DNA of 64,000 nucleotides from Pseudomonadota bacterium (GCA_008501635.1 QQUJ01000004.1:3085-67084); one strand, 5' to 3'. Shown: positions 2,234 through 55,928, counted from the stretch's first letter. Notes: generated from the sequence alone by a model not told the origin. Program-made: numbers and translations.

Positions 2234-4989
2234 CGCTCCTGCTTGCGCAGCGCGAGGATGGCCAGCCCGGTGAATACCGGACCGAAGGCCGCCAGTCGGA
2301 GCAGTGCACCACTGAGATCCGCCAGCCCCAACCCCTTGGTGAAACTGCCGACGCTGATCGTCATATACCAGGTCGTGGGCCAGAAGGTGCCCAAAATCCG
2401 CGCTGGGCCTTCGAGCGATGAGACCGGTTCCATCATGCCGGAAAACTGCAGGGTCGGCATGACCGACAGGATGGTACTGGCAAACACCGCCGTGACCTGG
2501 GTTGCCGTCATCATCGACACCAGCAGACCAAAGCCGGTCGCCGCCACCGCATAGACCAGCGCCGCCAGCGCCAGCAGCAACGGCTCACCGCGCAGCGGCA
2601 CCCCCAGCACCAGGACCACCAGCGCCGTCAGGATCGCAAAATTCAACAGCGTGATGCCGATGTAAACGAGTTGCTTGCCGATCAGGAACTCTGCCCTGCC
2701 GGTGGGGGTGACGTAGAAATTGGTGATCGTCCCGATCTCCTTTTCGCGCGCCACGCTGACGGCCATCAGGATCGCCGGAAACAGCAGCAACAGCAGCGGC
2801 GGGATCGAGGGGCCGATTGACGGCAGACTGTCCATCGCCGGGTTGTAGAGAAAGCGCGGTTCCAGCACGACGGGTGCGGCGGCGCTAGCCGCTGCCGGGC
2901 GCGCGAGCATATCGAGCGCAGGCACCGCACCGGCGGGTTCGGCCAGTACATGCGCGTGGGCGCCCGTGACATAGCTTTCGATGGTGCCTGCGCGCCCGGT
3001 GTCGGCCCCGTCGATCGTCGCCGCCACCTCGGCCCCGGTGCCGCGCCGCAGATCGGCGCCGAAACCGGGCGGGATCTGCAGCGCCAGCGCCAGTTCGCCA
3101 CTGGTCAGTCGGCGCTCCAGCTCATCGATACCCAGAAGCGGCGTACGGCCCAGAAACCAGAGGGAATCCTCGAACGTCGAGAGATAAGCGCGGCTTTCCG
3201 GGCTGCCGTCCTGATCCAGTGCGGCGAAGGGGATGTTGCGCACCTCCTGGGAAATGCCAAACGACATGATCAGCAGCAGCAGTGCGCTACCCAGAAAAGC
3301 GAAGGCCAGTCGTACCGGATCACGGCGTACCTGCAGCGCCTCGCGTGCGGTGAAGGCGAGCAGGCGGCGCACACTGAAGCCGGCGGCATCGTGCGCTGCA
3401 CTGGTTTCCTCAGGGGCGATAGAGAGCCCCGCGCCCGTGGCGGGCTCGGGCGGAATCTCGGCGGAGATGTAGGCGACGAAGGCATCTTCCAGCGTCGCGG
3501 CATCGCGCGAGCGGATGATCGCCGCCGGCGTGTCGGTGACCAGCACCCGGCCGGCGTGCATCAGCGACATGCGATCGCAGCGCAGCGCCTCGTCCATGAA
3601 ATGGGTCGAGATGAAGATCGTCACGCCATCCTTGCGCGACAGATCCAGCAAGAGCCGCCAGAAGTCATCGCGCGCCTGCGGATCGACGCCCGATGTCGGC
3701 TCGTCGAGGATCAGGATCTCCGGCGCGTGAATCACCGCCACCGCGAGCGACAGCCGCTGGCGCAGGCCCAGTGGCAACGCCCCGGCGCGCTGGTCCAGGT
3801 AGGGTTCAAGACCGAAACGCGGCACCAGGTCGGCCATCTGTCGATCGGTCAGTTCGCGCCCGAGGTGAAAGAGTCGTGCGTGCAGCAACAGATTTTCGCG
3901 CACGCTCAGCTCACCGTAGAGCGAAAAGGCCTGCGACATGAAGCCCACGCGGCGGCGCGCCTGCGGGTCCTGCGCATCCACCGGCTGACCGAAAATCCAG
4001 GCCTCACCCTCCGAGGCGGGCAGCAACCCGGTCAGCATTTTCATGGTGGTGGTCTTGCCGCAGCCATTGGAGCCGAGAAAGCCGAAAATCTCGCCCCGCG
4101 CGATGTCGAAGCTGACCGCATCCACGGCCGTGAAATCGCCAAAGCGCCGGGTCAGGGCACGGGCACGGATCGCCGGTTCACCGCTCGCAGCGGGCAGCGC
4201 GGCAACCGGCGCGGGGTCCGCGGCCGCATCGGTTTCGGCCGCGCCCGATTGCAGCAGCGCGACAAAGGCCTCGCTGACCGACCCGGTGCCGGTCTGGCTC
4301 ATCAGCTTCTGCGGGCTGGCCTCGGCCAGCACGCGGCCCGCGTTCATCGCCACCAGATGGTCGAAGCGCGCGGCCTCTTCCATATAGGCGGTGGACACCA
4401 GCACACTCATCCCCGGCCGGTCGGCGCGAATGGTATCGATCAGGTCCCAGAACTGGCGGCGCGCCAACGGGTCGACGCCGGTGGTGGGCTCGTCGAGCAG
4501 CAGGAAATCCGGGTCATGGATCAGCGCTGAACAGAGCCCCAGTTTCTGCTTCATCCCACCCGACAGCTTGCCGGCGAGCCGGTCGAGAAAAGGATGCAGG
4601 CCGGTGGCGCGCGTCAACCGCTCGATACGCGCGGCGCGTTCAGCCCGGCCCAGACCGAAAAGCTTGCCGAAGAATTCCAGATTTTCATGCAGGCTGAGAT
4701 CATGATAGAGGTTGCGCCCCAGTCCCTGGGGCATATAGGCGATGCGCCCGCCCACGGCGGCGCGATGGCGCGCATCGGCCATGTCACCGTCCAGCGTTTG
4801 CACACCGCCCTGCTGCAGCCGTTTGGCGCCCGCGATCAAGCCCATCAGTGTGGATTTGCCCACACCGTCGGGTCCGATCAATCCCACCATCCGCCCGGCC
4901 GGCAGCGCCAGCGTCAGATCGCGAAGCGCGGTGACCTTGCCATAGCGGTGGCTGACGCGCTCAAGACGGGTGACGGACGCAGCCTGCAT
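2230..4989 (-). CDS. rbbA: RbbA-like fused ABC protein: two ABC ATPase domains plus C-terminal ABC-2 permease domain
   Basis: 919 aa. Two Walker A motifs (GPDGVGKST, GSNGCGKTT) and ABC signatures (LSGGMKQK, LPLGLRQR), followed by a multi-TM ABC-2 domain. Same yhiI-rbbA-yhhJ arrangement as in E. coli. Confidence 0.75.
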   Translation of the reverse strand: MQAASVTRLERVSHRYGKVTALRDLTLALPAGRMVGLIGPDGVGKSTLMGLIAGAKRLQQGGVQTLDGDMADARHRAAVGGRIAYMPQGLGRNLYHDLSLHENLEFFGKLFGLGRAERAARIERLTRATGLHPFLDRLAGKLSGGMKQKLGLCSALIHDPDFLLLDEPTTGVDPLARRQFWDLIDTIRADRPGMSVLVSTAYMEEAARFDHLVAMNAGRVLAEASPQKLMSQTGTGSVSEAFVALLQSGAAETDAAADPAPVAALPAASGEPAIRARALTRRFGDFTAVDAVSFDIARGEIFGFLGSNGCGKTTTMKMLTGLLPASEGEAWIFGQPVDAQDPQARRRVGFMSQAFSLYGELSVRENLLLHARLFHLGRELTDRQMADLVPRFGLEPYLDQRAGALPLGLRQRLSLAVAVIHAPEILILDEPTSGVDPQARDDFWRLLLDLSRKDGVTIFISTHFMDEALRCDRMSLMHAGRVLVTDTPAAIIRSRDAATLEDAFVAYISAEIPPEPATGAGLSIAPEETSAAHDAAGFSVRRLLAFTAREALQVRRDPVRLAFAFLGSALLLLIMSFGISQEVRNIPFAALDQDGSPESRAYLSTFEDSLWFLGRTPLLGIDELERRLTSGELALALQIPPGFGADLRRGTGAEVAATIDGADTGRAGTIESYVTGAHAHVLAEPAGAVPALDMLARPAAASAAAPVVLEPRFLYNPAMDSLPSIGPSIPPLLLLLFPAILMAVSVAREKEIGTITNFYVTPTGRAEFLIGKQLVYIGITLLNFAILTALVVLVLGVPLRGEPLLLALAALVYAVAATGFGLLVSMMTATQVTAVFASTILSVMPTLQFSGMMEPVSSLEGPARILGTFWPTTWYMTISVGSFTKGLGLADLSGALLRLAAFGPVFTGLAILALRKQER

Positions 4990-4991
4990 GG

Positions 4992-6014
4992 CTAATCGGT
5001 GGGCGGGTCGGTGGGCGTGGCGACCAGCGGTGGGATGAGTCCCTCCGGCCAGTCCGGCAGGTTGCCGTCGTCCCCCGCCAGCCGCACCCAGGCGACGCCG
5101 CGTACGCCGGTCTTGACCTGGTCCATCCGCGCCGCGGCCAGTTCGGGTGGAATACTCACGCGGATGCGGAACATCAGGCTCTCACGCTCGGTCACGGTTT
5201 CTACTTGTTTGGGTGTGAACTGTGCTTGCGGCGAGACGAAGGACACCACCGCGGGCACGGCGGCAGTGGGCATGATATCGGGGACGATGCGCGCCTCGTC
5301 GCCGAGCCTGACGCGTGGGGCTTCGGTGGCGGGCAGGAAGAACTCCATGTAGATATTCTCGAGGCTGACCAGCGTCAGCAGCTTGCCGCCGTTGCCTAGA
5401 ATCTCACCTGGCTGCGCCAGACGGTAAAGCACCCGCCCCGCGCCCTGTGCGTAAAGCGTGCTGTCGGCGATACGTGCCGCGATCTCGGCGCGCGCGGCGG
5501 CTTCGGCGTCGACGGCGCGCTGTCGGGCTCGCAGGTTCGCCTTGGTGGCGGCCAGCGCAGCCTCGGCCACCTGCGTCTCGGTGCGGCGTATGTCGAGATC
5601 CTGTTGCGAGAGCATGTCGCGCGTGCTCAGCGTCTCGGCGCGGGCCTGTTCACTGCGTGCCAGCGCCAGTTTCGCCTCGGCCTCGACCACCTGTGCGGAC
5701 GCCACCCCGACCGCCGCCTCGGCGCTGGCCACCGCCGCCTCGGCGCGCATCAACTGCGACTTCAGTTCGGCGGTGTCCATGACCGCCAGCACATCGCCCG
5801 GCTGCACTCGATCGCCCTCCCGCACCTTGATTTCGGCCACCCGCCCGGCCAGGCGTGGCGAGATGTCGACGAGGTCCGCCTCGATTCGGCCATTACCGCG
5901 GGCAAACCCCTCGGGCGGCAGGCCCGAGGGTTTGAACAACACCGTCCATGCGGCGAAACCCAGAAGAGCCAGAAGGGCGATGAGAACGATGGAAATGGAG
6001 ATCTTGCGGGACAT
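4992..6014 (-). CDS. HlyD-family membrane fusion protein (YhiI-like)
   Basis: N-terminal TM anchor (MSRKISISIVLIALLALLGFAAW) then coiled-coil and barrel segments. Good RBS AGGAGA before ATG at 6014. 2-bp gap to rbbA. The ORF track's upstream M at 6047 is less likely. Confidence 0.7.
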   Translation of the reverse strand: MSRKISISIVLIALLALLGFAAWTVLFKPSGLPPEGFARGNGRIEADLVDISPRLAGRVAEIKVREGDRVQPGDVLAVMDTAELKSQLMRAEAAVASAEAAVGVASAQVVEAEAKLALARSEQARAETLSTRDMLSQQDLDIRRTETQVAEAALAATKANLRARQRAVDAEAAARAEIAARIADSTLYAQGAGRVLYRLAQPGEILGNGGKLLTLVSLENIYMEFFLPATEAPRVRLGDEARIVPDIMPTAAVPAVVSFVSPQAQFTPKQVETVTERESLMFRIRVSIPPELAAARMDQVKTGVRGVAWVRLAGDDGNLPDWPEGLIPPLVATPTDPPTD

Positions 6015-9628: not shown

Positions 9629-10200
9629 TCTACCCATTGCTCAAGTTTGCCCACATCGTTGGCGTGATGCTTATTGGCGCCGGGCTCATTGGCGTCTGGT
9701 TTGCCGATCTGCGCAGCCGCCAACTGAGGGAGTTGAGCCCTTTTGCGGAGGCGGTACGCAACATTGCGGTTTTTTATGATGGCCTGGTGGTCCCGGGTGC
9801 AATTCTGTTGTTGCTATCGGGCAGTTGGTTGATCGCGGAGTTCTTTGGAGGTTGGCAGTTTCTGAAACAACCTTGGCTTCTCGGAATGGTGGTGCTGTTT
9901 TTGTTCGAGTTCATAGAGGGAAATACTGTAACGCGGCTCTACTTCATGCGGATGCGCCGCCTGACCCGAGAGGCCCTTCGCGAGGGACACTTTACGCCTG
10001 AGCTTGAGGCGGCGCGGGCGGAATCGGTACCCTCCTTCACCCATTTTCTGGATCTGCCGGTGCTATTGGTCATCGTGGCCTTGGGCACGATCAAACCGGA
10101 GACCTGGACGTTGTTTCTGGTGGGCTGTCTCGCGGCCATCCTGGTGGCTGTCGCATTGACGCGATACATACCCAAACTCTATCCGTGGGGTGCGGGGTAG
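9625..10200 (+). CDS. DUF2269-like integral membrane protein (paralog)
   Basis: Same architecture as the preceding gene (MIYPLLKFAHIVGVMLIGAGLIGVWF...), translationally coupled to it. Confidence 0.5.
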   Translation: MIYPLLKFAHIVGVMLIGAGLIGVWFADLRSRQLRELSPFAEAVRNIAVFYDGLVVPGAILLLLSGSWLIAEFFGGWQFLKQPWLLGMVVLFLFEFIEGNTVTRLYFMRMRRLTREALREGHFTPELEAARAESVPSFTHFLDLPVLLVIVALGTIKPETWTLFLVGCLAAILVAVALTRYIPKLYPWGAG

Positions 10201-10336
10201 TCAGGGTGAATTGCTGGCGGTTTCATTCCCCAACCGCAAATACTCGACATCGCAACTCCCTTGCTTTCGTGTTTCGATGGATGTTATCGGCCAATCGGTG
10301 GGCTGGCTAATATTTATTCCCTTCGTCCCCTTTTTC

Positions 10337-10954
10337 CTATTCCTCAAACAACTTTCCTTCAACCACTACAATGGGAAAGACAACAGAACAGATATTCGGA
10401 CTTCGACGAAGCATCCCTATCTCTTTTTTCTCCGCCTCTTTCCTTTCATCAAGCTCGGCTACAGCAGCCAATGCAGCTTTTGAAACAGAAGTAACAGCGG
10501 AATAACATACATCTTTACCTGATGTTAAGGCCTGAGTTACACCATAAGCAGGCCTTTTAGGTATTGAGAATATCGGCAGGCGTTGAATATCAGCGTTTTT
10601 ACATGCTTCGTGAAGAAAGTGCCTTCCTAGACTATTTGCTGCTCGTTGTGCCACGCGAGCTGGATCAGCCAATCGTTTTTTATCAGATGTAAAAAGCAAC
10701 CACGGCTTATCAGTTGAACGCTTACATTCAATAAGAAGAGAAATTCGAAACAATACGTTTTCTACTTTTTTCTGCTTATATGCGACAATATCCAGCTCAC
10801 GCGAATCACCTGTTTCAGGATCTGAATAATACTCCGATTGAACAACGCGAAAACCACTTTGTTGTAAGGTAGACGCTACACGCATTTCCAAGGGGTAACC
10901 TTGCTCATCAAGCCACTTTGCTATCTTTGTTTTTAAGTCGTCTTTTTCGGTCAT
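10337..10954 (-). CDS. Mrr-cat-like PD-(D/E)xK restriction-endonuclease-fold protein
   Basis: 205 aa in a low-GC region. Motif E...D-I-V-A-Y-K ... L-I-E-C-K-R-S matches the D-x(n)-(E/Q)-C-K nuclease core of Mrr-type endonucleases. Last gene of the low-GC cassette. Confidence 0.55.
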   Translation of the reverse strand: MTEKDDLKTKIAKWLDEQGYPLEMRVASTLQQSGFRVVQSEYYSDPETGDSRELDIVAYKQKKVENVLFRISLLIECKRSTDKPWLLFTSDKKRLADPARVAQRAANSLGRHFLHEACKNADIQRLPIFSIPKRPAYGVTQALTSGKDVCYSAVTSVSKAALAAVAELDERKEAEKKEIGMLRRSPNICSVVFPIVVVEGKLFEE

Positions 10955-11019
10955 GCTTATAGGTTTCTAACGTTTATACTCTGCTGAGCTGCCTTTTTGG
11001 TGTCGGCTGGAGTACATCG

Positions 11020-12144
11020 TTATACGTTATTCTCATCATCACTATCGGGCTGCCAAGATAGAGGGAGGACTGATTTTCCTTCCATATCCCGGTATCTAAT
11101 TAGACTTGCTTTTTCTTTTACATCTCTTATTACTTTTGACCTTCTTTCGTATTCGGAATTTGCTTCCCCGTTTTCAGTATCCTTTTCAGGCGGTTCTGCT
11201 ATATTTCCTATGCGCGCAGAAAAATGATATCCAATATCAAGTCTTCCGGCGATTTTTTTAACACTCATACGTACATGGCCTTCAAGCTCATTACCTCTTA
11301 GGTCAGGACGTTTGACGACTTTATACTGCTCGATTAATTCGGATGTTATTTCATTTATTTTTTCAGACATTAAAGACTCAGCCCATTTGTCAATTTCATC
11401 AATTAGTTGTTTTGGTGCATCTTTTTCTTCCAGTTCTGCTTTTTTCTTCCTAATATCAAGAAGCTTCTCATAACCTAGCAGTAATATGGCAATTGTGCCT
11501 ACTATCACTTGTGCTGTTTCAGGTAATACTTCGAGAAAAACTGAAAAATCTGATGAAGAAATTGATCTTACTTTGAACTGTTCGGCTTTTCCTGTAACAA
11601 GCTCATTAAAGTGCATTAACTCTCGATTTAATTTTTGTAGATCTTTTGAAAAGTACTCGAGATCATCAGCATTCTCTCGTCTTGGAATAAGAACCCCTAA
11701 TTCCGCAGTATACCCTTTTAGCTCTTCAGCACTTATACCAAGACGTTCAAATCCTGCGACTAATTGTTCTAGGCCTCCTCTGAAAGATGCAAGCTCAGTA
11801 TGCATTTCTAGAATTTCTTTTTGTACTATGGCTGGCGTTACATCTACTTGAGTAAAACTGGCTTCTATTCTTGACTTAAGTGCGCCACCAAGAATTCCTG
11901 AGCCGCCAATTTCAGTAATTATTTGTTGTTTAGATACAGGCCTTTCATAAGATTCTATTTTTTCTAGAGCACCAATAAGGCTTAATTTATGAGCTGCTAC
12001 TTGCTCTTGAGGTTGCGGCTGGTTGGGTTGATTAATGGTATTTTGTAATGCATCAGCTAATTGATTTAGACCGCTCACAAGACTTGCAGAGTCAATTTCT
12101 TTTATGAGTTCTAAACATATTGAGTGAAGTTGCTCAGCGTTCAA
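11020..12144 (-). CDS. Hypothetical membrane-anchored coiled-coil protein
   Basis: 374 aa, about 40% GC. TTG start with RBS AAGGGAGAAGG. Long predicted coiled-coil N-terminal half, a single central TM helix (FSVFLEVLPETAQVIVGTIAILLLGY) and a charged C-terminal tail. No NTPase motifs. Confidence 0.5.
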   Translation of the reverse strand: MNAEQLHSICLELIKEIDSASLVSGLNQLADALQNTINQPNQPQPQEQVAAHKLSLIGALEKIESYERPVSKQQIITEIGGSGILGGALKSRIEASFTQVDVTPAIVQKEILEMHTELASFRGGLEQLVAGFERLGISAEELKGYTAELGVLIPRRENADDLEYFSKDLQKLNRELMHFNELVTGKAEQFKVRSISSSDFSVFLEVLPETAQVIVGTIAILLLGYEKLLDIRKKKAELEEKDAPKQLIDEIDKWAESLMSEKINEITSELIEQYKVVKRPDLRGNELEGHVRMSVKKIAGRLDIGYHFSARIGNIAEPPEKDTENGEANSEYERRSKVIRDVKEKASLIRYRDMEGKSVLPLSWQPDSDDENNV

Positions 12145-12266
12145 ATTCCTTCTCCCTTGCTATTGTTTATTCGCATAATGTTCACATAAAAGGCCGGAGC
12201 AAGCGAAGCTTGCGTAGGCCCAGCCCGCAGGGCGATTTTTGATGTGCTGGTTAGGCACTCGAACGC

Positions 12267-12731
12267 TCACTTTACGGCCGATACAGCAATAGACAGAAGA
12301 GATTCCGTACCTTGTAGCATGGCATTTTGATTCGGTAGCACTATGCCGTGGAATCCAAGTGGATACCTCAAATGGAATGGCCTGTCGTAAACCTGATGAA
12401 GGTGTACTACCCATTCTGGTTGTGGCGCGGGTAAAGGGTAGCCTCTATTCTTAGATTCCTCCCAGAGAGAGAGAATGTCGTGACCGTAAGGCGCGCGGCT
12501 GAGCGTCTCGACGTTTAAACCAGCCTCTGACAGCATAGCTTTAAGACTCGCTTCGCAGGTATGGCCGCATAGAAGGGTGATGGCAAATGGGGGCTTGGGC
12601 GAAATATCCGCTAAGGGTTTTGCGCCCAAGAACATTCCTTTTGCAGCAGTCAAATAACCCTGAGCTTCCGTAGGTTGGAATGTCCTAATGCCAGTAAGAT
12701 TGACCATAATTGTGCCCAACAGTTTCTTCAA
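12267..12731 (-). CDS. Hypothetical protein (first gene of the low-GC cassette)
   Basis: 154-aa ORF. TATAAT box about 95 bp upstream. No recognisable domain from sequence alone. Confidence 0.3.
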   Translation of the reverse strand: MKKLLGTIMVNLTGIRTFQPTEAQGYLTAAKGMFLGAKPLADISPKPPFAITLLCGHTCEASLKAMLSEAGLNVETLSRAPYGHDILSLWEESKNRGYPLPAPQPEWVVHLHQVYDRPFHLRYPLGFHGIVLPNQNAMLQGTESLLSIAVSAVK

Positions 12732-38830: not shown

Positions 38831-38873
38831 TCCTCAAAAACCGGACCCGCGGTGACACACGCACCGCAGCCAA

Positions 38874-39033
38874 GGAACCTCTGATCAAGTCTGTTTAGAT
38901 GAGAGTGTTGTTCAGAAGGGGCGAGCTCAGGGCGGAAAATACAGGTAATAGCCCGCTATGGCCAAGCTTTCCAACACTGAAATCGTCGCTTCCGGGCAAC
39001 AGAATCACTGAACACGACTTGATCAGAGGTTCC
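38874..39033. mobile_element. MITE-like 160-bp element, copy 1, with perfect 18-bp terminal inverted repeats
   Basis: GGAACCTCTGATCAAGTC at 38874-38891 and its reverse complement at 39016-39033. About 88% identical to the inverted copy at 43678..43837. Abuts the stop codon of the tetrahaem cytochrome gene. Confidence 0.6.
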
Positions 39034-39040
39034 CTAAGAT

Positions 39041-43641: not shown

Positions 43642-43677
43642 TACACTTCCCGCTTTCCCGAGTGCCCGTCACATTAG

Positions 43678-43837
43678 GGAACCTCTGATCAAATCGTGTT
43701 CAGTGATTCTGTTGCCCGGAAGCGACGATTGCGGTGTTGGAAAGCTCGGCCATAGCGGGCTATTACCTGCACTTTCCGCCTTGAACTCACCCCTTCCGTA
43801 CAGCACTCCCATCTAAACAGACTTGATCATAGGTTCC
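43678..43837. mobile_element. MITE-like 160-bp element, copy 2 (inverted relative to copy 1)
   Basis: Reverse complement aligns end-to-end with 38874..39033. TIRs GGAACCTCTGATCAAATC and GACTTGATCATAGGTTCC. Lies 37 bp upstream of the kinase start codon. Confidence 0.6.
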
Positions 43838-44100
43838 TCAGGTTCTACCCGTTTGCAGGGCGAGCTCTCGAACCTTCCCTCCATTGTGGCGGGGATCGCT
43901 GCGGATATCCAAAGGACGCTGACGACAAGCGACATGCAGCAAGGCGAGGGCGCGCAAGAAGCGCGTTCGGCTATACATCCGGTGATATCCCTTTGCCGGT
44001 GCGCGACCCGTTAGAATCCCGTGTACCCAAAAGCACGCCCAACTCATCCTGCTATCATGGACCGCGCTGCCCAATAGCGCACTCGACCACCAGCCCTGCA

Positions 44101-49975: not shown

Positions 49976-50063
49976 TTCATCAAGAGATACCGGTGGGAGC
50001 GGCGGAAGCCGCGAATCGATGCGGCCAATCGCGGCTTCCGCCGCGCCTACGGTTGAATCCGCT

Positions 50064-52230: not shown

Positions 52231-55080
52231 ATGGACAAGACTTACGACCCCCACGCCATCGAACAGCGCTGGTACAACACCTGGGAGGATCAGGGCTACT
52301 TCGCCCCGGCCGGCGCAGGCGAGCCCTACTGCATCATGATCCCGCCGCCCAATGTCACCGGTACGCTGCACATGGGGCACGGCTTCAACAACACCCTGAT
52401 GGATACGCTGACCCGCTACTACCGCATGTGCGGGCGCAACGCCCTGTGGCAGCCCGGCACCGACCATGCCGGTATCGCCACTCAGATGGTGGTGGAGCGC
52501 CAGCTCAACGCGGAGCAGAAGACCCGCCACGATCTCGGTCGTGACGCCTTCATCGACCGCGTCTGGACCTGGCGCGCCGAATCGGGCGGCACCATCACCC
52601 GCCAGCTGCGCCGCCTGGGTGCCTCGCTTGACTGGGCGAACGAGCGCTTCACCATGGACGAAGGGCTCTCCAAGGCGGTCCAGGAGGTCTTCATCCGCCT
52701 CTACGACACCGGGCTGATCTACCGCGGCAAGCGGCTGGTGAACTGGGACCCGGTGCTGCACACCGCGGTCTCCGATCTGGAAGTGGTCTCCGAGGAGGAG
52801 CAGGGCCACCTCTGGCACCTGCGTTATCCGCTCAGCGACGCTGCACAGGGACGTGCGAGTGCCGCGGGAGGCAGGACGCCGGGAGCGGCCGGCGAAGACT
52901 ATCTCATTGTCGCCACCACCCGCCCCGAGACCATGCTCGGCGACACCGCCGTCGCCGTGCACCCTGACGATGAGCGCTTCCAGGCGCTGATCGGCAAGAC
53001 GGTGATGCTGCCTTTGGCGAACCGCGAGATCCCCATCATCGCCGACGACTACGTCGACCCGGAGTTCGGCTCCGGCTGCGTGAAGATCACCCCGGCCCAC
53101 GATTTCAATGACTACGCCATCGGCCAGCGCCACGAGCTGGAGATGATCAACATCCTCACCATCGACGCCCGGATCAACGACAACGCGCCGGAGAAATATC
53201 GCGGCCTTGACCGTTACGAGGCGCGCAAGCAGGTGGTGGCCGATCTCGACGCCCTGGGTCTGCTGGAGAAGATCGACGATCACAAACTGATAGTGCCGCG
53301 CGGCGATCGCTCCGGCGCGGTGGTCGAGCCCTACCTCACCGATCAGTGGTTCGTCGACCTCACCCGGGAGACGCTGGACGACGGCAGCCCCGGCGGCTGG
53401 ACCGCCATCACCAAACCGGCGCTCGACGTCGTCGCCAGCGGCGATATCAAGTTCGTGCCGACCAACTGGGTCAACACCTACAACCAGTGGTTGGAGAATA
53501 TCCAGGACTGGTGCATCTCGCGCCAGATCTGGTGGGGCCACCGCATCCCCGCCTGGTACGACGCCGAGGGCAACTGCTACGTGGCCGAGTCCGAGGATGA
53601 TGTGCGCAAGAAATACCGGCTTGCCGATGACCTGATGCTGACCCAGGACAACGACGTGCTCGACACCTGGTTCAGCTCCGCTCTATGGCCCTTCTCCACC
53701 CTGGGCTGGCCGGAGCAGACCGAGCGGCTCAAGCTCTTCTACCCCACCTCGGTGCTGATCACCGGCTTCGACATCATCTTTTTCTGGGTGGCGCGCATGG
53801 TGATGATGGGCCTCTACGTCATGGAGGAGGTACCGTTCCGCGAGGTCTACATCCACGGCCTGGTGCGCGACGCCCACGGGCAGAAGATGTCGAAATCCAA
53901 GGGCAACATCCTCGACCCCATCGATCTGATCGACGGTATCGAACTCGATGCGCTGCTGAAAAAGCGCACTACCGGCATGATGCAGCCGCAGATGGCGAAG
54001 AAGATCGAGAAGCAGACCAGGGAGGAGTTCCCCGACGGCATTCCCGCCTACGGCACCGATGCGCTGCGCTTTACCTTTGCGGCGCTGGCCTCACCCGGGC
54101 GCGACATCAACTTCGACATGGGCCGCCTCGAAGGCAACCGCAACTTCTGCAACAAGCTGTGGAATGCGGCGCGCTACGTGTTGATGAACACCGAAGAAAA
54201 AGATTGTGGCGCAGAAGGCGGCGATCTCGAATTCTCGACCGCCGACCGCTGGATCATCTCGCGCCTGCAGCGCACCGAACAACTGGTCAATGAAGCCCTC
54301 GCCAACTACCGCTTCGATCATGCCGCGCAGGCCCTGTTCGAGTTCACCAAGAACGAATACTGCGACTGGTATCTGGAACTCTCCAAGCCGGTGCTTACGA
54401 GTGAGACAAGCAGCGCCGCGCAGCAACGCGGCACGCGCTGGACGCTGGTGAACGTGCTGGAAGCGCTGTTGCGCCTGATCCACCCGGTGATGCCCTATAT
54501 CACCGAGGAGATCTGGCAGCGTGTTGCGCCTCTGGCCGGCAAAGAGGGCGCGACCATCATGCAGCGCCCCTATCCGCAACCCGAGGCGGAAAAGATCGAT
54601 GCCGAGGCGGAGGCGGAGATGCGCTGGGTGATGGAGTTCATCATGGGCATCCGCCGCATCCGCGGCGAGATGAACATTGCGCCCGGCAAGGCGCTTCCCG
54701 TGCTTTTGGAAAACGCCGGCGCCAGCGACATCGCCCGCGCCGAAAAGTACGGCGCATGGCTGCAGTTCCTGGCACGCACCGAATCCATTACGCCGGTTAG
54801 CGGTGAGGCCCCCGAGTCGGCAACCGCACTGGTCGGTGAAATGAAGGTGTTGATTCCGCTGGCGGGGTTGATCGACAAGGATGCGGAGCTGGCGCGCCTC
54901 GACAAAGAGATCGGCAAGCTGCAAAAAGAGGTGGAACGCGGCGCAGGCAAACTCGGCAATGCCAACTTCGTCGACCGCGCCCCGGCCGAGGTGGTGGAGA
55001 AAGAGCGCCAGCGTGTCGCGGAGATGAAAACCTCGCTCGGTAACCTGGAAGCGCAGCGATCAAAGATCGCGGCGTTGTGA
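52231..55080 (+). CDS. valS: Valyl-tRNA synthetase
   Basis: 949 aa. HIGH ([11 protein letters not shown]) and KMSKS motifs. C-terminal coiled coil. Confidence 0.95.
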
Positions 55081-55101
55081 ACAGTTGGAAGAAACTTTTC
55101 A

Positions 55102-55532
55102 CCACAAAGTACACAAAGTAAGGCGTTTTTAACTTCGTGAACTTTGTGTACTTAGTGGTAAATCGCTTTTGCTTTTGAGCAGTTGTAGGTTGGGCTGGCG
55201 CCGCGCAACCCAACTGCGGCCAAGGAAAATGAACTGATAACCACAACGTACAAGAAGTGCGCAAAGTAAGGCGTTTTTTAACTTCGTGAACTTTGTGGTA
55301 AATAGCATTTTCAGTTTTTCAGTTGTAGGTCGGGTTTGCGCGATATAATCCGATATTATTGAATTAGACGATCGTTGGGTCACGCCGCGCCGACCCAACT
55401 ACGGCCAAGGGAAAAGAACCGTTAACCACAAAGTACACGAAGTGCACAAAGTAAGGCGTTTTTAACTTCGTGTACTTTGTGTACTTCGTGGTAAATTGCG
55501 TTTCCAGTTTTTGCAGTCAAACGAGATTGGCA
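55102..55532. repeat. Three tandem copies (139, 185 and about 106 bp) of a structured repeat in the valS-hisI intergenic region
   Basis: Units begin CCACAA(A/C)GTACA... at 55102, 55241 and 55426. Each carries an 18-bp inverted repeat (CCACAAAGTACACAAAGT ... ACTTTGTGTACTTAGTGG) around AAGGCGTTTTTAACTTCGTGAA and a second GC-rich hairpin (TTGGGCTGGCGCCGCGCAACCCAA). Copy B contains TTGTAG-N15-TATAAT. Confidence 0.6.
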
Positions 55533-55928
55533 ATGACAACCGAAGAGATTCTAAAGCTGGTGGATTTCACCAAGGGCAACGGCCTGGTCACCGCCATCGC
55601 CCAGGATGCCGAGACCGGCGAGATCCTGATGCTGGCCAACATGAACGAGGAGTCGCTGCGCAAGACCCTGGAGTGCGGCGAAGCGGTCTACTGGAGCCGC
55701 TCGCGCTCCAGGCTCTGGCACAAGGGCGAAGAGAGCGGCAACGTGCAGCGGGTGAAGGAGCTGTTCATCGACTGCGACGGTGACGCGGTGCTGATGAAGA
55801 TCGAGCAGATCGGTCGCGCCGCCTGCCACACCGGCAAGCGCAGCTGCTTCTTCCGCAAGATCGACCACGGCAAAGTCGAGGACATTGGCGAGCAGGTCTT
55901 TGATCCGAAGCAGGTATACGGAAAGTAG
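55533..55928 (+). CDS. hisI: Phosphoribosyl-AMP cyclohydrolase
   Basis: Start [12 protein letters not shown] at 55533. Conserved cyclohydrolase motifs ([26 protein letters not shown]). Confidence 0.8.

Follow-up and report, generated by a model that had tools for sequence, protein, structure and literature searches.

A tandem array of REP palindromes and AT-rich foldbacks in the valS-hisI spacer of an uncultured gammaproteobacterium

The intergenic spacer between valS and hisI in an uncultured gammaproteobacterium, related to Thiohalobacter and common in anammox reactors, holds 2.75 head-to-tail units of a repeat in which an AT-rich foldback, here called H1, is joined to GC-rich hairpins that their sequence identifies as GTAG-tagged REP and REPIN elements. 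We think it probable that this array is a REP/REPIN cluster multiplied in tandem along with its flanks, H1 included, which would make it a known kind of intergenic repeat and not a new regulatory system. A preliminary description of the locus had offered three options, namely a tandem family of small RNAs, a reiterated regulator-binding array controlling hisI, and a small mobile element present as decayed copies. The last of these comes closest, in that the GC-rich hairpins are REP and REPIN elements, what is reiterated in tandem being the whole unit. Tandem clusters of GTAG REP and REPIN elements would in this way extend to an uncultured Thiohalobacter-related gammaproteobacterium.

The valS-hisI spacer and its repeat units

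The window analysed here, a stretch of 64,000 nucleotides, is part of CP053451.1, the 2.91-Mb single contig of the MAG PRO23, which was recovered from a marine anammox reactor, represents a proteobacterium and was assembled from both nanopore and Illumina data. Within it valS (52231-55080, plus strand) encodes a valine-tRNA ligase of 949 amino acids, recognised from the Pfam families tRNA-synt_1, Anticodon_1 and Val_tRNA-synt_C and from the source annotation, and ends in a TGA stop codon at 55078-55080. The next gene, hisI (55533-55928, plus strand), encodes a phosphoribosyl-AMP cyclohydrolase of 131 amino acids and is followed by hisG; valS and hisI enclose a spacer of 452 bp (55081-55532). 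Among 5.8 billion proteins the closest matches to this ValS, from Thiohalobacter thiocyanaticus and gammaproteobacterial MAGs, reach 74% identity, so that there are no close relatives for comparison.

The spacer is identical across five independent assemblies of the same organism, among them Illumina-only contigs of a second MAG assembly and Logan contigs from four other sequencing runs. Since the agreement is base for base in the Illumina-only and Logan assemblies and extends to the run TTTTTT in unit B, the array is no nanopore artefact. Every short-read contig is interrupted within the array, as is usual for such assemblies at a local repeat, and within that limit no variation in copy number was seen among samples; REP clusters thus break short-read assemblies at valS-hisI. 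The genes pepA and feoB, an ABC ATPase gene and an ABC transporter fusion were called in the Illumina and Logan contigs (L016 and L002) and uncalled in CP053451.1 (L017, L003 and L093), a difference in keeping with residual indel errors and the completeness estimate of 70.7% (PMC7358590).

Specifically, each unit of the array runs through; 1) a linker, L2; 2) the foldback H1; 3) a T-rich linker, L1, that ends in CAGT; and, 4) a GC-rich element. The array starts a few bases past the valS stop codon, the first foldback (H1-A, 55098-55162) beginning 18 nt beyond it, and continues with L1-A (55163-55184, plus strand; AATCGCTTTTGCTTTTGAGCAGT), which unit alignment and direct repeats show to be homologous in all three units. 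After the GC-rich element of unit A comes a linker L2 (55215-55237, plus strand; TGCGGCCAAGGAAAATGAACTGA), a direct repeat with 89% identity to the linker between units B and C. The units are 77-91% identical to each other across the families of direct repeats, and are spaced by 140-149 bp from A to B, depending on the register of the 9-mers described below, and by 184-185 bp from B to C. Exact copies of a 24-nt core, AAGTAAGGCGTTTTTAACTTCGTG, are present at 55116 and 55449, and a copy with an extra T at 55265, the number expected by chance being 0. Because the linkers, H1 and the GC-rich element are all homologous between units, it is the whole unit that has been duplicated and not the hairpins alone.

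Core matches and direct repeats therefore bear out the three head-to-tail units that had been described between valS and hisI, and the third is indeed incomplete. Its truncation had been placed at the hisI start codon; in L1-C (55496-55517, plus strand), however, homology with units A and B stops after the CAGT at 55514-55517, no REP follows, and the array thus ends 15 nt before the ATG. It had also been correct to set CRISPR aside, as the segments between the hairpins are homologous between units and there are no unique spacers. The array likewise holds no credible open reading frame: the frames that overlap it, among them minus-strand frames of 89 and 155 amino acids, have no homologues, and an exhaustive HMMER search with the 89-amino-acid frame brought up just two proteins, both repetitive and unrelated. 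Nothing among 5.8 billion proteins matched a chimeric translation of every open frame, a search of little power because the known locus is itself without any gene call.

The GC-rich elements and the REP families of the locus

REP-A (55185-55214, plus strand; GTAGGTTGGGCTGGCGCCGCGCAACCCAAC) is a single GC-rich palindrome with a GTAG tag at 55185-55188. In unit B its place is taken by a head-to-head doublet, which is the layout of a REPIN, formed by REP-B-left (55325-55354, plus strand; GTAGGTCGGGTTTGCGCGATATAATCCGAT), a spacer of 19 nt (55355-55373) and the inverted REP-B-right (55374-55402, minus strand, on which it reads GTAGTTGGGTCGGCGCGGCGTGACCCAAC). The tags of the doublet, at 55325-55328 and, on the minus strand, at 55402-55399, put GTAG outermost on both strands, and the presence of an inverted doublet instead of a singlet makes unit B about 45 bp longer than unit A. 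The stems are of the form GTTGGG..CCCAAC, found in the window in the REP array only, with GC-rich inner loops, and in REP-B-left the pairing survives only through G-U pairs. Folded on the plus and the minus strand, the stems give -17.4 vs -15.5 and -32.4 vs -27.4 kcal/mol, with several G-U pairs favouring the plus strand.

There is a counterpart in Thiohalobacter thiocyanaticus. REP-A is identical at 24 of 30 positions to the left REP of a REPIN in that species (L022 12955-12984), and the one difference in the stem is compensated, T..A facing C..G; the first 17 nt of REP-B-left are identical to the Thiohalobacter REP, and from tag to tag the doublets measure 78 nt in unit B (55325-55402) and 81 nt in Thiohalobacter. 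GTAG REPs have been defined by an unpaired tag and a GC-rich stem-loop of about 30 nt with a stem of 6-13 bp; they form head-to-head dimers 20-100 bp apart, show complementary stem variants and frequent G-T pairs, sit after ORFs between co-directional genes, and comprise 24 published families (Di Nocera et al., 2013, PMC3733652). The elements in PRO23 share with this superfamily the tag, the stem-loop of about 30 nt, the dimers, the stem variants, the G-T pairs, the position after an ORF and the tandem clustering. Moreover, GTAG REP clusters have been reported as ‘reiterated in tandem along with flanking DNA’, and some GTAG units as having multiplied in combination with unrelated stem-loops that adjoin them (PMC3733652). 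On these grounds of sequence and layout we identify the GC-rich hairpins as GTAG-tagged REP and REPIN elements.

The array also recalls the ordered REPIN clusters of Pseudomonas fluorescens SBW25, which are tandem repeats that include flanks, with two alternating palindromes and a period of 184 bp (Bertels and Rainey, 2011, PMC3116915). Both are extragenic, repeat REPs or REPINs head to tail along with the flanking sequence, and alternate two palindromic modules at a period of about 184 bp, but in PRO23 the second module, H1, is no REP, and there are 2.75 units at one known locus. The BIMEs of Escherichia coli are intergenic mosaics of REPs and short motifs that lie after genes and are sometimes amplified in tandem; they alternate the orientation of their REPs (Y and Z types) and have defined linker motifs. 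The PRO23 array differs from them in that REP-A and REP-B-left are co-oriented and the partner is an AT-rich foldback of 65-75 bp.

Some features sit less easily with a REP cluster. REP families are normally high-copy and dispersed, whereas further copies, which the preliminary description had thought worth seeking, did not turn up: neither H1 nor the REP-A/B family recurs elsewhere in about 67 kb of the genome (for the latter, by profile and nhmmer search of the 64-kb window and a further 3 kb or so). With H1, the REP or the whole unit as query, nhmmer found in the window and in the fetched loci only the array and one Thiohalobacter REP. A generic scan for GTRG-tagged hairpins was unspecific (19 found vs about 11 in shuffles). 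There is no RAYT gene among the genes called across the window, and H1, besides not being a REP, has a conserved core.

A second GTAG/GTGG-tagged REP family (GGMGCGGCGRAAGCCGCGA) is represented in the window by a REPIN at 49993-50050, between pepA and holC, which consists of GTGGGAGCGGCGGAAGCCGCGA, 14 nt and TCGCGGCTTCCGCCGCGCCTAC and from which it follows that REPINs exist in the PRO23 genome. The same family occurs in a relative, the MAG L337, whose ValS is 74% identical and in which the order valS-hisI-hisG is kept. One such REPIN (3270-3331) lies in its valS-hisI spacer of 159 nt, and another lies 1.7 kb further on, after hisG, in the hisG-feoA spacer (5017-5071). The valS-hisI spacer of L337 is free of foldbacks and tandem repeats and has no non-coding sequence that can be aligned with that of PRO23; the array is absent from this syntenic relative.

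In other relatives a response-regulator gene follows valS, and in Thiohalobacter thiocyanaticus valS is directly followed by a MITE-like element, unrelated and about 270 bp in length, whose terminal inverted repeats are long (CACTAGTGTCCTGTCACACGTCTAATGACGCCTTCAG...; L022 8893-9165). In more than one lineage the 3' flank of valS is thus where small elements insert, and the spacer attracts small mobile palindromes, with a content in PRO23 that is lineage-specific. The hisI-hisG spacer of L337 (3787-4014) has short GC-rich repeats of its own, GCGCAAAGGCGC and CTTGGCGTCTTTGCG, apparently of another small repeat family.

Under the REP-cluster reading, GTAG-tagged palindromes would have been mobilised by a RAYT transposase, and unequal recombination or slippage would then probably have multiplied a REP-bearing segment in tandem, along with the DNA around it, to yield 2.75 units of linker, H1, T-rich linker and REP or REPIN. 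The number of nine-mers in each arm of H1 would drift by slippage.

The AT-rich foldback H1

H1 is composed of contiguous, phased 9-mers of the form CACRAAGTW, arranged as a forward set and an inverted set around the core AGGCGTTTTT(T)A. Exact matches to CACRAAGTW number 11 in the 64 kb, with 1.0 expected, and all lie within the array. H1-A has two nine-mers in its left arm (CACAAAGTA twice), the core AGGCGTTTTTA and three inverted nine-mers in its right arm, and forms an inverted repeat with arms of 22 nt and 91% identity; H1-B (55238-55302) has three on the left, two on the right and an extra T in the core; H1-C (55422-55495) is the most complete, with three on either side and arms of 31 nt. 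A conserved loop of 22 nt had been described in these hairpins, which proves to be a core of 11-12 nt, AGGCGTTTTT(T)A, plus one 9-mer, and in unit C that 9-mer is paired. Compared with shuffles, the three foldbacks fold at -26.8 kcal/mol (z -6.0) in A, -20.4 (z -3.1) in B and -35.6 (z -6.3) in C. Their GC content is about 38%, against 62% for the genome.

Because the left/right counts of nine-mers differ (2/3, 3/2 and 3/3 in A, B and C), the register of the hairpin shifts among units, which looks like slippage and not like selection on a defined structure. The left arm of H1-B carries three substitutions, all uncompensated, and covariation of the hairpins across copies, which had been put forward as a check, is lacking in the AT-rich ones: none of 26 pairs shows a two-sided compensatory change among the three copies, a comparison of low power with three sequences only. 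In unit C the alternation of A and G leaves two G-U pairs and two A-C mismatches on either strand, and so gives no strand preference. On the other hand the 24-nt core is kept in all units, apart from the extra T in B, while the arms vary, and this could reflect constraint rather than neutrality.

H1 cannot be read as a REP, since its CCAC...GTGG ends are wrongly oriented for a tag. It is lineage-specific, and REP biology leaves it unexplained. Sought by exact patterns of 18-20 nt, the H1 core gave only chance matches, without 9-mer arms, in 185,579 GTDB species genomes, JGI metagenomes and IMG/VR, collections which as scanned did not include the PRO23 genome, and the whole spacer found no match by blastn against plasmids and phages. 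DnaA boxes were considered and rejected: agreement of the 9-mers with TTATNCACA is limited to 5-6 of 9 positions, DnaA arrays do not have such a contiguous 9-bp spacing, and the GC skew shows no switch. Inspected by eye, parS, integron attC, dif and sigma-54 motifs did not fit either.

One possibility is that H1 is a small foldback MITE (CCAC...GTGG, flanked by TAA) that lies beside the REP, the array being a pile-up and duplication of two unrelated non-autonomous elements. TAA stands on both sides of H1-B and H1-C, the GC content is low, the genome contains at least one other MITE-like family, and a different MITE follows valS in Thiohalobacter. However, the flanks of H1-A are TCA and TAA, and those of B and C are not independent of each other because the whole unit was duplicated; in addition, no other H1 exists in the 67 kb of genome or came up in the pattern and blastn scans of public collections. 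We consider this origin unlikely. The other MITE-like family is an element of about 165 bp with terminal inverted repeats GGAACCTCTGATCAAGTC...GACTTGATCAGAGGTTCC, present as two inverted copies (38873-39037 and 43674-43838) that are 92% identical and bracket 4.6 kb; it has no Rfam match, and the Logan short-read contigs stop at the first copy.

An alternative reading makes H1 a platform for protein binding, in which a protein of the winged-helix or ribbon-helix-helix type would bind cooperatively to two inverted sets of contiguous 9-bp iterons, repeated three times along the array, as at phage and PICI replication origins, plasmid centromeres and operators, with the REPs incidental. It draws on the strict phasing of the contiguous 9-mers, their inverted sets around a conserved core and the GC content of about 38%, and also on several viral contigs in which a like layout, and even the same 9-mer, directly follows a primase-helicase gene on its 3' side. 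A scan for two tandem 9-mers found in such contigs 3-5 contiguous 9-mers, an AT-rich centre of 60-70 bp and inverted 9-mers. Three related contigs (L031, L034/L086 and L043) carry the array right after the 3' end of a gene for a Prim-Pol/DUF3987 primase-helicase, L070, which is unrelated to them, has it 3' of a gene for a VapE-like primase-helicase, and in one GC-rich contig it lies inside a winged-helix ORF. The viral arrays, built of CACAAAGTT or CACAAAGTA, are at L031 5873-6009, L034 2535-2662 (the same as L086 344-471), L043 8852-8987, L070 4689-4985 and L077 2792-2984, and they are probably unannotated replication origins of the PICI or phage type.

In two control scans with permuted 9-mers, clusters numbered 5 and 6 per 120 loci, including two inverted ones, where the real 9-mer gave 8 per 69. 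As permuted 9-mers also yield viral arrays, sharing the 9-mer is no evidence of homology, and descent of H1 from phage iteron arrays was dropped after these controls, the architecture alone being comparable. PICI and phage origins (PMC6092414) are alike in having short contiguous iterons in inverted sets, whereas the PRO23 array lacks a neighbouring initiator gene, a long AT-rich centre and any mobile-element context. The centre of H1 measures 11-12 nt as opposed to a melting region of 60-80 bp rich in AT, the gene upstream is valS, and the window contains no initiator, rep, primase, integrase or mobile-element gene. In the satellite phage P4 both ori and crr are iteron regions, and the direct repeats of crr are about 120 bp long with several iterons each. 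The number of 9-mers per arm of H1 is not conserved, unit B is decaying, L337 is without H1, and the GC skew does not switch at the locus. By architectural analogy H1 could bind a protein; that such binding accounts for the array, with the REPs as bystanders, we regard as improbable. Should H1 be found at many loci, or beside a replication or transposition gene, it would define a small repeat family that is new and whose binding protein could be tested.

Transcripts of the spacer and the regulatory readings

The near-consensus sigma-70 promoter that had been described in copy B calls for correction: TTGTAG and TATAAT (55344-55349) are separated by 15 nt, outside the range of 16-18, the motif lies inside REP-B-left, and a promoter scan did not list it. 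That scan of the array gave no promoter that recurs per unit, its sole match being on the minus strand of unit B. The case warns that REP clusters can be misread as promoters or small RNA genes. No canonical intrinsic terminator was found in the array. A U-rich stretch follows each H1, with 5 of the first 8 bases past the extended stem in A and C, and it is plausible that H1 acts in weak termination or in protecting the 3' end of the valS mRNA. An Rfam search of the spacer region with all families and E up to 10 returned only sub-threshold miRNA-like hairpins and no histidine-leader match, and over the whole window Rfam found one tRNA.

That each unit is a small RNA gene, the array thus forming a tandem family of sRNAs of 100-150 nt, appears very unlikely. 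The hairpins are strong and the G-U pairs of the REP stems favour the plus strand, but promoter and terminator do not recur per unit, there is no Rfam family and no covariation among the foldbacks (with three copies), H1-B is degenerating, the hairpin parts are accounted for as REPs, and the collections searched hold no homologue. A reiterated regulator-binding array for hisI, the other regulatory option that had been raised, is conceivable for the 9-mer foldbacks, although the relative with the same valS-hisI-hisG order lacks them entirely.

A mini-ORF of 15 codons (55085-55132, plus strand) opens with TTG 4 nt past the valS stop codon, encodes LEETFHHKVHKVRRF and stops in the core of H1-A; it is probably fortuitous. 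The left arms of H1 (55085-55132 and 55424-55465) read (His-Lys-Val)n in one frame, with a start codon, TTG, in unit A only, and this is probably a coincidence. Together with the position of the array these features would allow a relay attenuator for hisI-hisG acting on valS read-through transcripts, in which stalling on a His-containing peptide would shift the pairing of arms from unit to unit and so block the last hairpin; if true, a tandem repeat would here make up an attenuator. The mini-ORF covers the first left arm and has three His codons before its stop in the H1-A core, U-rich tracts lie behind each H1, and hisG, which encodes the first enzyme of the pathway, is downstream. Pairings of a right arm with the left arm of the following unit (-23.8 and -28.1 kcal/mol) are comparable to those within units (-26.5, -18.1 and -38.2 kcal/mol), so that such a relay is thermodynamically conceivable. 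The His coincidence is weak, however, because any 9-mer that contains CAC encodes His in one of its three frames. A Shine-Dalgarno sequence and a canonical terminator are both lacking, His accounts for only 3 of the 15 codons, REP hairpins separate the supposed segments, Rfam gives no histidine-leader match, and the syntenic relative L337 is without such a structure. We therefore hold a relay attenuator to be very unlikely.

Returning to the REP/REPIN cluster, the hairpins of the array may act in valS read-through RNA as barriers at the 3' end or as weak terminators, in the way generally proposed for REPs, and hisI would owe its expression to read-through or to a weak promoter close to the last unit. 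Most likely the array has no dedicated function beyond such generic REP effects on transcripts.

Away from the array, a stretch of the window at about 10000-12700 (L092 5712-8106) has a GC content of 42% against about 62% and contains three genes whose products belong to no Pfam family; this islet may have been acquired horizontally.
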